From Pseudomonadota bacterium (lineage in GTDB: Bacteria; Pseudomonadota; Gammaproteobacteria; Burkholderiales; Thiobacteraceae), in the NCBI GenBank assembly GCA_021812385.1, contig JAKANO010000007.1, forward strand, positions 12,512 through 76,511: a stretch of 64,000 nucleotides of DNA, in the 5' to 3' direction. Every line of letters begins with the position of its first letter. Within the stretch, counting starts at the first letter, position 1. A program made the translations under genes and the position numbers. Positions 22,878-47,603 of this stretch are shown here, piece after piece. The notes under the pieces were generated by a model, which was not told where the DNA came from, ran no database searches, and saw only the letters and a program-made list of their open reading frames with translations.

Positions 22878-23186
22878 TAAGGAGAAGGGTGGCATGGGTA
22901 TTTGCTCGATATGGGCCTGGGATTGTAAGAGCTCGATGAGCAAATGCTGGCTGCGCTCGAAAACGAACAATAGCGTTTAGCTAATGCCGCTAGTTGAAAG
23001 ACGCATGCTGATTAGTGACGGAAGTCGGTTAAGTGCCAAAAGCTGCTAGTCGTGCCTCACCTTTGGTTTTCCCGATAGCGGCCACTCTGGCAGAAAAAAC
23101 ACGGATTGATCTTGCCCGTGACAAGTTAGTCATTCATGCTTCGCTCTAACACTGTCCCCAATAGAGATTTCGTTAGAAAGTACGGT

Positions 23187-25037
23187 ATGAAAATAATATC
23201 ACTGCAATTGTCTAATATTTTGAGCTTCAGGTACTTCGATAACGTCGGAGATGCCGAGAAAATCAGTTTTGATGATGATCTCAATATAATCATTGGGGAA
23301 AATGGCTCAGGTAAATCAACGGCTCTGGAAGTCATAAATTTCCTGTTCAGACGCGTTCTCTATAAACAGTACAACCTCAATCAAGACCTATACTCGCAGC
23401 GGAATAACATCACCGCTGATCAGCGAAAACAAATTCTCCTTCCTGCAAACAACCTCTCGTATAACGGGTTTAGACTTGATCCTAATTGGAATACAGAAGA
23501 CCGGTCTCAAACAATAAGTATTGTGGTTAAACTGGACGAGATTGATAAAAAGAATCTTCATTATCTGCAAGATAAACGAAACACTTTGACGCCATGGGTA
23601 GGGCGTTACACCACTCGGGGTGAGACTGCTACGTCAGAGTTCAGCGAAACGTATACTCTAGATGTCATCTTAAATCGAAATGATAAAACGTTCTCCGTCC
23701 AACCTCGGGACTGCGCTCAAGATTTCGGGTATGAGTACCTCTCGGACTACAATTTTTACAAAGAGACGATCGCTCTCTACAACTTAGAAAATTCAGCGAA
23801 TCCAGTCGATACGCTCTACGAGTCGTTCACTCTGATAAGCAGTTACCGCAACTATCATGCTTTCAATGTCTCAATAAGCTTGCGAGACAGCACGCCCGCC
23901 ACACAGATTCAGCAAATTCGGAACGCTGATTTCACAAGGAGTCTGAACGCAAACGATAACTCGGAACCGGCGATTTTTGCGCTTGTTCGTCTCCGAGTTG
24001 CCGAAATGCACTTTGGCTTAATGCCACAAAAGATGAGTGAGGCGGAATGCGAGGCCGCTGCTAACGAGCTGCCGTTCATACTTGAAATCAACAAACGTCT
24101 TCGTATCGTCAATCTGATGTGCAAAATCAAACTTCTTGATCAGCGCACCTGGCAATACAGATTTGAGTTTTTAGATCTGCGAAGAAACAAGGCCATTGCA
24201 GATATCAACAGCCTTAGTGCTGGGCAGAAGGCTATTACCCATCTGGTTTTCGAGGCCTATGGAAGAGGCGACCTAAAAGGTGGGCTCGTTATCATCGATG
24301 AGCCAGAAATTCATCTGCACTATCAGTTCCAGCATGAGTACCTACAGGTAATACGAGAACTGAACAAATACCAAAGTTGTCAATACATTTTGGTTACGCA
24401 CTCCGAAGCACTCATAAACTCGGCAACTATCAGCAGTGTAAGGCGGTTCAGTCTCAGTGCAGAAGGGTACACAGAGATACGGTTCCCAAATCTTACGGCT
24501 GAACAGAAGCTCTTGATTCGTATTCTTGACAACACAAGGTCAACCTATGCGTTCTTTGCAAAGAAAGTCGTTTTGGTCGAAGGGGACTCGGACAGATATT
24601 TCTTTAAGGCTGTGATTCAGTTGCTATATCAGGAGCTAAACCAAGAGATTGCGATACTTCACGTCGGTGGTAAGAACGAGTTAGTTCAATGGACCACTCT
24701 TTTTGAAAGCTTTGGGCTGACTGTCTATCGGATTGCTGATTTGGACTATGTCTACAATATCTTCTACCCTAACGAATCATGGACGAAGCTAAAGACATCA
24801 ACTGCGGTAACGGCTTTCAAGAACGCACACCCTGACTGCGAGTCCAGTATAGCTACAGAATATGCAAACAACACCTTTATTCTTAGGAACGGTGATCTTG
24901 AGCATTATCTCGATATTGGGAAGGATCTGGCGGAGGTTATAGCATTTTGTACCAATCGGTTGCCACAGTTCCTACAAGATGAAAGCAATCAGAGAAGCGT
25001 AGAACTTAGAGAGATTATTCGGCAGATCACTGTCTAG
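23187..25037 (+). CDS. OLD-family nuclease (ABC-type ATPase + C-terminal TOPRIM), solitary/class 1-like
   Basis: MKIISLQLSNILSFRY, Walker A GENGSGKST, signature LSAGQKAI, Walker B LVIIDEPEIHLH. C-terminal TOPRIM-like VVLVEGDSDRYFF and IADLDY. AT-richer than the flanks. The start at 23187 has only a weak RBS; the track start is 23136. Confidence 0.75.
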   Translation: MKIISLQLSNILSFRYFDNVGDAEKISFDDDLNIIIGENGSGKSTALEVINFLFRRVLYKQYNLNQDLYSQRNNITADQRKQILLPANNLSYNGFRLDPNWNTEDRSQTISIVVKLDEIDKKNLHYLQDKRNTLTPWVGRYTTRGETATSEFSETYTLDVILNRNDKTFSVQPRDCAQDFGYEYLSDYNFYKETIALYNLENSANPVDTLYESFTLISSYRNYHAFNVSISLRDSTPATQIQQIRNADFTRSLNANDNSEPAIFALVRLRVAEMHFGLMPQKMSEAECEAAANELPFILEINKRLRIVNLMCKIKLLDQRTWQYRFEFLDLRRNKAIADINSLSAGQKAITHLVFEAYGRGDLKGGLVIIDEPEIHLHYQFQHEYLQVIRELNKYQSCQYILVTHSEALINSATISSVRRFSLSAEGYTEIRFPNLTAEQKLLIRILDNTRSTYAFFAKKVVLVEGDSDRYFFKAVIQLLYQELNQEIAILHVGGKNELVQWTTLFESFGLTVYRIADLDYVYNIFYPNESWTKLKTSTAVTAFKNAHPDCESSIATEYANNTFILRNGDLEHYLDIGKDLAEVIAFCTNRLPQFLQDESNQRSVELREIIRQITV

Positions 25038-42841: not shown

Positions 42842-43117
42842 ATGCGCTACACAACGCAAATCAAATCCATCAGCTATCTGAAGGCGAATGCCGCCGAGGT
42901 GCTGGATCAGTTAACCGAGAAGCGCGAACCGCTCGTCATCACGCAAAACGGCGAGGCCAAGGCAGTCATGCAAGACGTGGCCTCCTATGACGAGACGCAG
43001 GAAACCCTCGCGCTGCTGAAAATCCTGGCGCTGGGCAACCGCGAAATAGAAGAAGGCAAAGTTAAGCCGATCGCCGAAGTGGTGAAGCGGCTGCGCAGCA
43101 AAAAAACGCGCGCCTGA
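42842..43117 (+). CDS. type II antitoxin, Phd/YefM family
   Basis: 91 aa, ISYLKANAAEVLDQLTEKREPLVITQNGEAKAVMQDVASYDE. Its stop overlaps the toxin start. Confidence 0.85.
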   Translation: MRYTTQIKSISYLKANAAEVLDQLTEKREPLVITQNGEAKAVMQDVASYDETQETLALLKILALGNREIEEGKVKPIAEVVKRLRSKKTRA

Positions 43118-43443
43118 TGCGGTTCAAGGTACTGCTCACCGCAGGCGCGGAAAGCGATCTAAATGATTTGCACGGCTATATCGCAGCGTATGATTCGCCA
43201 CAAAATGCCGACGACGTGCTGGATAAGCTGCTGGAAGTCGCCGAGAGCCTGGCCACTTTTCCGGAGCGCGGTTCGTATCCCCCGGAACTGTTGGCGCTTG
43301 GCATCCGCGAATATCGCCAGTCATTTTTCAAACCCTATCGGGTCATCTACCGCGTGATTGGCAAGCAAGTGATCATTTATGTGATCACCGATGGTCGGCG
43401 GGACATGAAGTCACTGTTGGCGCGCCGACTGCTCGGCGCGTAA
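43117..43443 (+). CDS. type II toxin, RelE/ParE family
   Basis: 108 aa, SFFKPYRVIYRVIGKQVIIYVITDGRRDM, typical ParE/RelE C-terminus. Confidence 0.85.
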   Translation: MRFKVLLTAGAESDLNDLHGYIAAYDSPQNADDVLDKLLEVAESLATFPERGSYPPELLALGIREYRQSFFKPYRVIYRVIGKQVIIYVITDGRRDMKSLLARRLLGA

Positions 43444-43630
43444 GCTCTACGGTTCAATCTTGCACTCAGGGCGGAATCTGGAATATTGCAACGCAAGTTG
43501 TAACATGCGAACTTGTTTTATTGTTGACAGTCTCAGTTCTATTTGAAAGCGGCCAGTCTTCGCTCAGAGCGGATCGGCAGCCATCGACCCTGAGCAGGCA
43601 TACGAGTTTTGGAAAGCAGACGTTCAGCGT

Positions 43631-44491
43631 TTAGCTTGAGGGGCCGCCCGGCCGCAGAGTGGGCGGGGAACCGCGGTCCTCTCGAAGCGATGGCTCGGTG
43701 CGGCTAACTTCATCGATTTCGAGTTCAAACTTGGTTGTTGAGATTCTCGCTTGGAATATCTTCGTTGGAATGTCTCGACTATCGACCCATTCAAGCACGT
43801 CGCGCTTGTCGTCCTCTCCGATAAGTGCTCCAAGAATGATCCCAACAAGTGCTTCCGGTGGAGTCTTATAGACCCCGGCGCCACGCTTGTACTGAATGAG
43901 ACGCCATTCTTGCTCGTACTCCCAATGATCAGACTTAGTGAATATCGCGTGATCAAGCATTTCATCGTGACTTTGCGAAACAGGGTTTACAACTGGCCGC
44001 ACTGCTTTGTAGCGAACCGGTTGTGAAGACTCGAATGCGTTCCCTATTGCGAAGAACTGAAGGCAAATACCTCGATGTGAATTGGCATAATGTGACCACA
44101 TTAATATGTCTTTCGGAGTGGCTGACAAACAGAGGACGCCTATCTTTGATGTAACAATTTCATCGTACATCTGATGGAAGGGCCCAAGGTTCCTCGGGTC
44201 ACGTGGATCAGAGTTTGGATCACTAACCTTGGCTCTGGCTTCGGCGCGGCGCTGCTCCCGGCTCATGTGCGGAGCCTGACGAGATATGACTCCTTCGTAG
44301 TACTTGATTAGGTCCGCTTTGGTGGCATCAAACTTGAATACCGGTCGACAGTCAAATGGATCGTTGAACGCATTAGGAGATGAGAAGTAGTGCATCGAGT
44401 TCAGTATCGAATCCTTTGCCCACTCTTTAAATTTTCCGTCCAAGCTGCGGTATCGGTATAGATGCTGGGGCGATTCGGCTATGTCGTCCAT
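43631..44491 (-). CDS. DUF2971-like protein
   Basis: 286 aa, N-terminal LYRYRSL...HYFSSPNAFNDPFDC matches my recollection of the DUF2971 signature. AT-richer than the host genes. Confidence 0.65.
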   Translation of the reverse strand: MDDIAESPQHLYRYRSLDGKFKEWAKDSILNSMHYFSSPNAFNDPFDCRPVFKFDATKADLIKYYEGVISRQAPHMSREQRRAEARAKVSDPNSDPRDPRNLGPFHQMYDEIVTSKIGVLCLSATPKDILMWSHYANSHRGICLQFFAIGNAFESSQPVRYKAVRPVVNPVSQSHDEMLDHAIFTKSDHWEYEQEWRLIQYKRGAGVYKTPPEALVGIILGALIGEDDKRDVLEWVDSRDIPTKIFQARISTTKFELEIDEVSRTEPSLREDRGSPPTLRPGGPSS

Positions 44492-44507
44492 GAGACGCCT
44501 AACAAGG

Positions 44508-44658
44508 CTGTAGAAAAACCCCTTGAGGGGTCAAATGAGAAAAATTGCGGGGGTCACAAAACCCCTCCCGAACATGAGATCGTCGAATACAGCGCGTTTT
44601 GAGAGGTCGACTTTGGCGCATGATGTCGCTCATTTTTCAGAGTTGAGTTTTTCTACAG
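44508..44658. repeat. 12 bp perfect inverted repeat bracketing a hairpin-rich spacer between the two island genes
   Basis: ctgtagaaaaac (44508-44519) and gtttttctacag (44647-44658). The interior carries ccccttgagggg and ggggtcacaaaacccc hairpins. Confidence 0.6.
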
Positions 44659-44724
44659 GCTCAACGTGCAAGCTCAGGAACGCGAAGCCGGCTTGCCCGC
44701 GGAGCGTCCCACTGGAGCGGAACG

Positions 44725-45864
44725 TTAGGCATGGACGTCCTCACCTGAAACAAGATCAGTAATTCCAGAATACTGATGGCGCAAAACGCTCGTTGTCGTG
44801 CTTTGGTCGAAGTAAGTGAAATCCGGGTTGAAAGGCGTTTCTAGATGAATGTAAATGGACGCAAGAAGGGACGAGATGGTTGAGTCGCGGTCGAGGAATG
44901 GAACTCGGTCCGCGCCGTATCTTACGAAGCGCCCTCTGTTTGTCGAGTATCCAAAACCGGAAGCCTTGTCGATCACGTATCCGCATGGAGTCACGACGCA
45001 GTCGTTATAAATGTAAGCGCCGGTTAGCAATGGAATTGAACGAGTTTCTAGCTCGACCTTCGTTAGACGATCTCGGTAGACTCCCACGATGGTCTTGCGG
45101 AGAAGTTCTCCGTTGCATACTGCTTTTCCAGCCTCGCTCACGTACACGTCCCAGCCCATCAGATGGAACGAAGGCGAATGCAGTTTTTCTCGTCCCCAGC
45201 GCTCGCTGTAGTCGCTGTATTGGTTCCACTTCCGACCGAGGTCAAGAAAACTATCAAGCGTGCTAATAACTGAGTCTCTCTTCAGGTAGCCCTTTACCTC
45301 TACAACAGCACGAACAGACTCTGGCCTTACAACTACAAACTCGCCATCACGAAAAATCGGGGGGAAGTTGTGATCGTCGAAAACAATAATATCGAGTTGG
45401 TGAGAGACATAATGCTCTTTGAGATTCCAAAGGTCTGTGTTGTCACCCGCATTCTCACGCAAATGGCTTTCTCGCGTGAATGCAATAAACCCCGTTCCGA
45501 CGCTATAGCGCCTAGGAATAAATTGCTCTATACACGTCCTCAGCAGCGATTCCTTATATCGCCCAACGCTCGGCTCGTGGGATGTTCCAATGATTTGTGC
45601 GAGTCGATTAACCTTCGTGGAAAATTCTTCGCCGATCATGCCTGCGTATGCAGTGAGGTCGCCTTCTTTCGAAGCAAGGTAGCGTCTTCTCGAATCTTCG
45701 CTTTCGCTTACCACAGTGCCTCCGAATGCCTGACGGTTAATCAATAGACCCGGATATCTATTAATATAGAGACAGCAATCACGGGGTCTTGTCTTGGTGA
45801 TTCTTAGTGATCGTTCGATCTTCGATCCGGTTATTGCGCTAGGCAAAAGGAGACCGGATACCAA
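44725..45864 (-). CDS. PD-(D/E)xK nuclease-like protein (DUF6602-like core) with uncharacterised C-terminal half
   Basis: GRYKESLLRTCIEQFIPRRYSVGTGFI ... HQLDIIVFDD ... VRAVVEVKGYL gives a D...E-x-K arrangement. The ~160 aa C-terminal half has no motif I recognise. Start uncertain: no RBS at 45864, and the next Met is codon 76. Confidence 0.6.
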   Translation of the reverse strand: MVSGLLLPSAITGSKIERSLRITKTRPRDCCLYINRYPGLLINRQAFGGTVVSESEDSRRRYLASKEGDLTAYAGMIGEEFSTKVNRLAQIIGTSHEPSVGRYKESLLRTCIEQFIPRRYSVGTGFIAFTRESHLRENAGDNTDLWNLKEHYVSHQLDIIVFDDHNFPPIFRDGEFVVVRPESVRAVVEVKGYLKRDSVISTLDSFLDLGRKWNQYSDYSERWGREKLHSPSFHLMGWDVYVSEAGKAVCNGELLRKTIVGVYRDRLTKVELETRSIPLLTGAYIYNDCVVTPCGYVIDKASGFGYSTNRGRFVRYGADRVPFLDRDSTISSLLASIYIHLETPFNPDFTYFDQSTTTSVLRHQYSGITDLVSGEDVHA

Positions 45865-46066
45865 TGCATTATGCCCATGTTTTGGATGGTCAGCTATGGC
45901 TGCGAACTGCGAACTGTGTCGCTGAATGACCGGTATAGGGAAACTGCTCAGTCGTCCGCTCCTGGCACTGAGTTGCCTGACTCAGTGCCAATCGGATCGT
46001 CCCATGACGCTGCGAAGCAGACCTAAGCGCGCAAATCATGGACACATAATTTGTGTGCTTCTAGTC

Positions 46067-47260
<1,194 letters not shown>

Positions 47261-47303: not shown

Positions 47304-47603
47304 TTACTCGTCTTCATCCTCGTCAAACGCTTCGTCATCATGGGTGTCGATGAGTTCTTGAATATCGTCGACAAACATGCCGCCGCCACTGTTGTAATCC
47401 TCAATGGTTTTAGAAGATAGGTGCAGTACTTCAACGGCAACGTGCTCGCAGGCATATTGATTGATTCTTTGAAACAGCGTTTCCATGAACTGCGCAAACG
47501 TGATGTCGATATCGACGGTTGCATAGGCATCGTCCAATGCATTCTGCGCAATGGCTTCGAAATATTCTTTAACAGAGTTGATGGCTTGTTCGTCTAAGTC
47601 CAT
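47304..47603 (-). CDS. small highly acidic hypothetical protein
   Basis: 99 aa, C-terminus DDIQELIDTHDDEAFDEDEDE. 18 nt after the NYN gene and 43 nt before metK. AT-richer than the neighbours. Confidence 0.55.
   Translation of the reverse strand: MDLDEQAINSVKEYFEAIAQNALDDAYATVDIDITFAQFMETLFQRINQYACEHVAVEVLHLSSKTIEDYNSGGGMFVDDIQELIDTHDDEAFDEDEDE

Follow-up and report, generated by a model that had tools for sequence, protein, structure and literature searches.

Two adjacent genes in a foreign islet beside metK, probably independent cassettes with predicted antiphage roles

Do two neighbouring genes of foreign composition make up one immune system, or were they brought side by side by separate insertions? 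The question is raised by a 2.6 kb islet found at positions 43444-46066 of a 64,000-nucleotide stretch of DNA from a member of the Thiobacteraceae (Pseudomonadota; assembly GCA_021812385.1, contig JAKANO010000007.1, positions 12,512 to 76,511 of the forward strand), hereafter the window. The islet hosts two genes on the minus strand, gene 1, encoding a DUF6602 protein, and gene 2, encoding a DUF2971 protein, which a sequence-only reading of the window had joined in a candidate two-gene defence module. The data reported below favour, with a probability of about 0.6, two single-gene cassettes that were acquired separately and are independent of each other, both of them most likely antiphage genes of the abortive-infection type. 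Both genes are linked to defence because Damona (DUF6602) and Aristaios (DUF2971) are single genes experimentally shown to be protective, because relatives adjoin a ThsB-TIR gene, a type ISP restriction-modification (R-M) enzyme and a type II R-M system, and because the composition of the islet is foreign. Gene 1 and gene 2 are held to be independent because they are not co-located elsewhere, because homology ends at the borders of each coding sequence (CDS), and because terminator-like hairpins lie in the spacer.

The two same-strand open reading frames (ORFs), and the peptide motifs quoted from them in the sequence-only reading, are present in the DNA. The islet is made up as follows:

43444-46066: islet (2.6 kb), between the ParE stop and the metK stop
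43631..44491, minus strand: gene 2, 286 aa, DUF2971 / PADLOC PDC-S31, putative DarT-like ADP-ribosyltransferase
44492..44724, no strand: spacer between gene 1 and gene 2, 233 bp, strongly structured, hairpins followed by T-runs
44725..45714, minus strand: gene 1, corrected CDS (329 aa and stop codon), predicted PD-(D/E)xK nuclease of the NucC fold, long-form DUF6602, solitary
45715..46066, no strand: non-coding leader separating the metK stop from gene 1; its part 45715-45864, the extension of the original ORF, shows no conservation as coding sequence

The islet is AT-richer than its surroundings, as had been judged by eye. At 0.503, the GC content of the islet is about 2.8 standard deviations (SD) below the mean of the window, 0.581 (SD 0.028, calculated on non-overlapping 2.6-kb segments). 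An equally low GC content is found in 2.65% of all 2623-bp segments, all of which fall either at the islet or at an OLD-type gene at about 22-26 kb. The GC content at third codon positions is 0.51-0.53 in gene 1 and gene 2, and 0.66-0.87 in neighbouring core genes. The composition of the islet is foreign.

Families, folds and relatives of the two genes

The ORF originally assigned to gene 1 (44725..45864, 379 aa) exists, but is over-extended by 50 codons. Gene 1 starts at GTG 45714, not at TTG 45864, because first 25 and then 94 aligned homologues begin there, and because the gene has been independently called at 329 aa in three contigs of the same population (L034-L036; L numbers are our labels for loci). 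The leader extension is absent from homologues, and DNA homology to loci L023 and L037 begins at 45729/45734. The following features were placed in and next to gene 1:

45719..45723, minus strand: Shine-Dalgarno-like GGAGG, 4 nt upstream of the gene 1 GTG, read from the sequence
45235..45657, minus strand: nuclease core, about residues 20-160, with the catalytic D/E/K site
45391-45393, 45298-45300 and 45292-45294, minus strand: predicted catalytic residues D108, E139 and K141, respectively
44728..45189, minus strand: subfamily-specific C-terminal half, about residues 176-329, beta-rich

Gene 1 matches Pfam DUF6602 at 8.9e-17 (61.4 bits, cut-off 27), in line with the DUF6602-type PD-(D/E)xK assignment made at first sight. 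In PADLOC it is hit by profiles for a CRISPR (clustered regularly interspaced short palindromic repeats)-associated PD_DExK protein (6.9e-20) and for NucC (8.8e-13). NucC chains in the PDB are retrieved at 3e-4 by the single sequence, and at 5.7e-11, over the core, by the family profile. The AlphaFold2 model of gene 1, obtained from 95 sequences, has a predicted local distance difference test score (pLDDT) of 92.8 and a predicted template modelling score of 0.90; both gene 1 and gene 2 were modelled as monomers. The nuclease fold expected from the motifs was recovered by Foldseek, the top 14 PDB matches of the model being all NucC (E 7e-11 to 6e-8; template modelling score, TM, about 0.6 on NucC length, 288-312 alignment columns). 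Type IIF/IIP restriction enzymes come next, at E of about 1e-2. The active site of NucC has been described as IDx30EAK, and in structure NucC comes closest to type II restriction enzymes (10.1101/694703); two of these, NgoMIV and SgrAI, are found also among the Foldseek matches of gene 1. The corresponding motif of gene 1 is LD108-x30-E139-V-K141, the D-to-E spacing being 31 residues, as in NucC. D108 and E139 are present in 95/95 family members, K141 in 93/95. Gene 1 is thus shown, at the level of a structural model, to be a predicted NucC-fold nuclease with an intact D/E/K site. No gene 1 relatives were found in phage genomes.

The statement that neither family had an assigned function is outdated. 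Damona is a single-gene antiphage cassette of the DUF6602 family, residing in the chromosomal integron of Vibrio cholerae (bioRxiv 10.1101/2024.07.02.601686), and according to the same source (10.1101/2024.07.02.601686) the lone DUF6602 protein protects against phages. Damona and gene 1 have in common the DUF6602 domain, matches to Cas PD_DExK and to small-endonuclease profiles of the cyclic-oligonucleotide-based antiphage signalling system (CBASS), and the status of stand-alone gene on mobile DNA. They differ because gene 1 has no attC-like site, and is hence no integron cassette, and because the C-terminal half of gene 1 is confined to a subfamily that is itself rare (111 of 3875 core-sharing representatives, E<=1e-30).

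Gene 2 matches the PADLOC family PDC-S31 (PDLC04990) over nearly its entire length (2.7e-56; residues 6-260 aligned to profile positions 5-256 of 259, or 252/259 positions), and occurs, as PDC-S31 does, as a single gene. PDC-S31 is itself a computational candidate in PADLOC, and no paper naming it was found in the literature searched. The DUF2971 assignment held at 3e-7 (32.1 bits, cut-off 22), the match being limited to residues 131-198; phrog_1762 is matched at 3.1e-45. All 118 aligned gene-2 relatives match DUF2971. Alignments of 27 and of 118 sequences have the same invariant residues, FNDP, W132-x-H134-Y135, H139 and W190-x-Y192-E193-x-E195-W-R, one of which corresponds to the following feature:

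43907-43915, minus strand: invariant E193-x-E195 of gene 2

The AlphaFold2 model of gene 2 has a pLDDT of 92.3. In Foldseek searches DarT chains rank 1, 2 and 7, at non-significant scores (E 0.26-1.5, TM 0.25-0.42). PDB searches carried out with the sequence and with the profile gave no match even at E 10, the fold search of BFVD gave none, and no DarT, AbiGi or ADP-ribosyltransferase (ART) domain emerged from a lax Pfam scan of the 118 relatives. Since fold and sequence searches are non-significant, the putative ART assignment of gene 2 rests mainly on the literature, where DUF2971 is placed beside DarT and AbiGi and an ExE motif is described as conserved (PMC12522546). DarT is the single-stranded DNA ADP-ribosyltransferase toxin of DarTG, and an ExE-type motif is invariant in the gene 2 family. 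DarTG includes the macrodomain antitoxin DarG, whereas the neighbours of gene 2 are ParE and the DUF6602 nuclease; no macrodomain was detected in the contexts of four gene-2 relatives (L032, L033, L122, L123). Aristaios, a validated abortive-infection-like system from a Lactococcus plasmid (PMC11381338, PMC13064643), is a DUF2971 protein of 316 aa for which an ADP-ribosyltransferase fold is predicted (PMC11381338); transcription and protein production of the phage are reportedly blocked by it. Aristaios and gene 2 are both lone DUF2971 proteins on mobile DNA. Their hosts belong to distant phyla, and the likeness is at the level of the Pfam domain.

The C-terminal tail of gene 2, about 21 aa (SRTEPSLREDRGSPPTLRPGGPSS; 3' end of the gene, 43631-43696), is missing in homologues and modelled at low confidence. 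DNA homology to the closest homologue, 86% identical, ends at 43684. The non-conserved tail and this end point suggest that the ancestral stop was lost at an insertion or recombination junction. Distant, partial gene-2 relatives were found in nine records of phage genomes, several of which, judged from their names, look like SSU5-type phage-plasmids.

Gene 1 was monitored in 26 independent contexts, consisting of 22 genome loci and of the contexts of homologues 91%, 88%, 75% and 74% identical to it. The 91%-identical copy (L037) has a 294-aa gene of unknown kind upstream, and an opposite-strand gene downstream. The 88%-identical copy is part of a Tn7-like cargo, where it follows a ThsB-TIR gene and a TPR gene. 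The 75%-identical copy adjoins a type ISP restriction enzyme in an element resembling integrative and conjugative elements (ICE), and the surroundings of the 74%-identical copy are prophage-like. The ICE-like element (L026-L031) carries a TraG-type coupling protein and ArdC, and its type ISP enzyme is 1603 aa long; the 75%-identical homologue was seen in at least 24 contigs of ENA assemblies, the accessions of which (ERZ27237xxx) are in series with those of the assemblies containing the population of the window. Gene-2 relatives at 70%, 67%, 46% and 44% identity (L032, L033, L122 and L123) are lone insertions amid housekeeping genes. Directly after the 86%-identical homologue (L038:255-2127) comes another DUF2971/PDC-S31 gene, a divergent paralogue 336 aa long, arranged in tandem, and the gene-2 relative of a Roseomonas plasmid adjoins a type II R-M system. 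Membership of families with antiphage members and foreign composition uphold both genes as defence candidates, as the sequence-only reading had it.

One or both genes may alternatively be non-immune. Gene 1 might act as a restriction-like nuclease, either orphan or selfish, and gene 2 might be a toxin, an addiction module of mobile DNA, or an effector that is secreted and ADP-ribosylates its targets. Effector function has been predicted for about 18% of DUF2971 proteins (PMC12522546), plasmids and phage-plasmids commonly carry gene-2 relatives, and many relatives of both genes reside amid housekeeping genes. We regard this alternative as unlikely. The similarity of gene 1 to type II restriction enzymes, its next-best fold matches, is not accompanied by a recurrent methyltransferase partner, and in the contexts read no secretion system was found, either beside gene 2 or beside its relatives. 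Furthermore, the gene 2 family is on the PADLOC list of defence candidates, and the members of both Pfam families that have been experimentally tested protect against phages.

The C-terminal half of gene 1 and its relation to NucC

NucC is a cyclic tri-AMP-activated endonuclease of CBASS and of type III CRISPR systems (PDB 6p7p, 6q1h, 6uxf, 7zgv), a homotrimer that assembles into a hexamer when its ligand is bound. NucC and gene 1 share the restriction-endonuclease fold, the D...E-x-K site and the D-to-E spacing, and differ in size (about 240 aa in NucC, 329 aa, or about 90 extra residues, in gene 1), identity being restricted to 13-16%. NucC is found in operons with a CD-NTase or with the Cas10 of type III CRISPR, and no such neighbour recurs in the 26 contexts of gene 1. 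The C-terminal half of gene 1 has no sequence-level homology to NucC, and the conservation of the residues of pocket and gate loop is not demonstrable. Gene 1 is NucC-like at the catalytic level, yet fails to qualify as a NucC by context and length.

The C-terminal half had been described as an unknown domain. The description is correct in that no Pfam, NCBIfam or PHROG match was found and the sequence is subfamily-specific, less so in that this half, modelled at pLDDT 84-98, is part of one compact NucC-like globule. When the family was aligned by hhalign to short (about 250 aa) DUF6602 proteins, only residues 5-175 or so of gene 1 were covered; with a 327-aa DUF6602 protein from a Vibrio plasmid, only about residues 21-158. 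These matches to other DUF6602 subfamilies, limited to the core, score 1e-29 and 1.6e-27. As profile-profile alignments reach the core only, the C-terminal 155 residues or so are private to the gene-1 subfamily. Of 1.84 billion cluster representatives searched, 3875 have the core (E<=1e-3), and 111 of these reach E<=1e-30; a word-indexed search gave about 99 full-length clusters of the subfamily. Within this long DUF6602 subfamily D277, T279 and L283 are invariant in the C-terminal half.

The 327-aa protein is encoded by Vibrio parahaemolyticus plasmid pVPSD2016-3 (L040:3938-4921), about 1 kb upstream of genes of the SIR2 family and of genes with TIR domains. It has the nuclease core in common with gene 1, and an unrelated C-terminal half. 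Since the two proteins share only the core, different C-terminal halves seem to be mounted on the DUF6602 core. In another protein, P0362 (322 aa), only residues 153-310 match the private C-terminal module of the long subfamily, the N-terminal 150 aa matching neither DUF6602 nor any other Pfam family. P0362 may provide evidence for a separable C-terminal module, or may be a chimeric or frameshifted sequence.

Could gene 1 be an orphan second-messenger effector, responding in trans to cyclic tri-AMP, or to a different cyclic oligonucleotide, supplied by CBASS or type III CRISPR from elsewhere in the genome? No other structure matches gene 1 nearly as well as NucC does. The cyclic-tri-AMP pocket of NucC involves R53, Y81 and T226. 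The equivalent of R53 is R69, a position with Arg in 74/95 members and with Lys in a further 9. Y81 aligns to N116, a variable column, and 80/95 members have an aromatic residue at the next position. T226, as well as H136 and Y141, which form the latch of the gate loop, lie in regions of NucC which cannot be aligned to gene 1, and the half of NucC that builds the pocket finds no sequence homologue in gene 1. Moreover, neither cyclase nor Cas10 was found among the families listed (best 25 per library) for 144 proteins flanking gene-1 relatives, in the Pfam calls on individual gene-1 loci, or among the window ORFs scanned. An effector of this sort is, on balance, improbable.

In the long-form subfamily, nuclease and sensor may instead reside in the same polypeptide, the C-terminal half replacing the cyclic-tri-AMP pocket and directly detecting a phage cue or another small molecule. 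This self-contained arrangement is put forward tentatively. The fusion of the C-terminal module to an unrelated N-terminus, which P0362 may represent, would fit a separable sensor module. If true, this would be a cyclase-independent switch for a NucC-fold nuclease.

Co-location of the two genes and the spacer between them

Partners of gene-1 relatives were searched with hidden Markov models (at the 22 genome loci, models of both families on six-frame translations), over flanks of up to 10 kb where the contig allowed. A gene-2 relative was found in 0/26 gene-1 contexts, 3 of which show little or nothing downstream, and a gene-1 relative in 0/6 gene-2 contexts (L032, L033, L038, L122, L123 and the Roseomonas plasmid). 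In PLSDB, gene-2 relatives were detected in 616 plasmids, full-length gene-1 relatives in none. Gene 1 and gene 2 are found together in three contigs of the window's own population (L034-L036), and nowhere else. The nucleotide homology shared with other contexts is bounded by the CDS borders of each gene. No recurrent partner of gene 1, and no common neighbour cluster, emerged from BLAST clustering of its neighbours; the commonest family in the 144 flanking proteins, scanned with Pfam and PADLOC, is Phage_integrase, with 4 proteins.

The RNA corresponding to the spacer folds at -89.7 kcal/mol (z -4.3). The elements recognised in it are:

44565..44550: terminator-like site
44530..44514: second hairpin, CCCCTCAAGGGG, followed by T5, read from the sequence
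44505-44519 / 44647-44661: 15-nt inverted repeat

Because of these hairpins and T-runs gene 1 and gene 2 are probably transcribed separately. The spacer has no Rfam match, and was found in no other context compared. As Damona is an integron cassette, an attC site was considered, and discarded because the repeat ends, GAAAAAC / GTTTTTC, do not fit the RYYYAAC / GTTRRRY core sites. A miniature inverted-repeat transposable element or a repetitive extragenic palindromic element was rejected too, the arms of the inverted repeat being found nowhere else in the window.

The DUF6602 and DUF2971 genes are no two-gene module, and their pairing is an accident of stacking. A cooperating system in which, for example, the DUF2971 protein senses or signals and the nuclease executes could be read from genes on the same strand, 233 bp apart, similarly low in GC and kept together in three contigs of one population, but is very improbable given the 26 + 6 independent contexts with no co-location, the homology breaks at the CDS ends, the hairpins between the genes, the PADLOC entry of the gene 2 family as a single-gene candidate, and the published members of both Pfam families, which act alone.

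Weight of the evidence and surroundings of the islet

Several points weigh against two independent antiphage cassettes. The antiphage roles of gene 1, of gene 2 and of their subfamilies are predicted, and the mode of activation of gene 1 is one that we purely infer. Damona and Aristaios are tied to gene 1 and gene 2, respectively, through the Pfam domain only. The ART fold of gene 2 is unsupported by Foldseek significance (E 0.26-1.5), by PDB searches with the sequence or by the Pfam search for ART domains. The link to neighbouring defence genes is predicted from individual contexts, and many relatives of both genes lie amid housekeeping genes, with no other defence gene near. Finally, for two very close homologues of gene 1 the contig stops within 32-270 bp downstream, so that the neighbour on that side is poorly seen.

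Were the two genes independent antiphage cassettes, as we favour, they may operate as follows. Gene 1 would encode a solitary NucC-fold, Mg2+-dependent DNA endonuclease, inactive until infection and switched on through the subfamily-specific C-terminal half, which would stand where the embellishments of NucC build the trimer interface and the cyclic-tri-AMP pocket. Activation would probably proceed by a change of oligomeric state that pairs active sites, and the activated enzyme would cleave phage and host DNA non-specifically, resulting in abortive infection. Gene 2, by analogy with Aristaios, might be a DarT-like ADP-ribosyltransferase, dependent on nicotinamide adenine dinucleotide (NAD+), blocking phage gene expression. 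Each gene would work without the other.

The neighbours of the islet, and other genes of the window of possible relevance, are:

42842..43443, plus strand: Phd/ParE type II toxin-antitoxin pair, Pfam PhdYeFM 3.1e-17 and ParE_toxin 2.3e-17
43117..43443, plus strand: ParE toxin ORF, Pfam ParE_toxin 2.3e-17
46067..47260, minus strand: metK, islet border
47304-47603, minus strand: acidic 99-aa ORF, GC 0.45, between metK and the NYN gene, kept in the same population
23136-25037, plus strand: OLD-family ATPase plus TOPRIM nuclease gene, 633 aa, GC 0.437, the lowest in the window

The context had been likened to a defence island. The Phd/ParE pair is real, but it is convergent with gene 2 and near host composition (GC 0.561), and the HNH, NYN and methyltransferase genes nearby make a weak case for a defence context. 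A YajD-family equivalog (1.9e-42) accounts for the HNH gene, the NYN gene encodes a LabA-like protein that has an OST-HTH domain, and the methyltransferase is HemK/PrmC-like, with a host-like GC content. The OLD-type gene matches Pfam AAA_15 (3.6e-22) and OLD-like_TOPRIM (5.3e-15) and PADLOC Old (2.1e-26), is GajA-/AriA-like, and looks like a second single-gene insertion of defence type. It is a better sign than the HNH, NYN and methyltransferase genes that this genome collects single-gene defence insertions. The 99-aa ORF has no Pfam, NCBIfam or PADLOC match.

As anticipated, no integrase or border repeat of a convincing kind was found at the islet, and no tRNA gene in the window. The Rfam scan of the islet gave one sub-threshold chance match and nothing else. 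A look-up of the exact MetK protein led to the same population with the same islet, and to no islet-free site. Empty sites were searched by a scan of JGI metagenomes with MetK as well; relatives were at most 62% identical among the best 80, generic MetK peptides dominating. The exact MetK of the window is found in a few ENA and NCBI contigs only, and the large subunit of RuBisCO groups with proteins of Thiobacillus, Zoogloeaceae and Burkholderiales metagenome-assembled genomes. Judged from these two protein sequences, MetK and RuBisCO suggest a poorly sampled, autotrophic, betaproteobacterium-like lineage.

The analysis removes a tempting false lead, the pairing of gene 1 and gene 2 being chance stacking in a small insertion site, and no new two-gene immune system. 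Both genes are now placed in families with prior antiphage evidence, and the locus is an example of gene-sized candidate defence cassettes, with homology reaching precisely as far as the limits of the CDS. The current understanding of NucC-fold nucleases is that of second-messenger effectors, and the rare 329-aa subfamily, like Damona, has no cyclase. Any cue sensed by its private C-terminal half would show how such nucleases are self-controlled.

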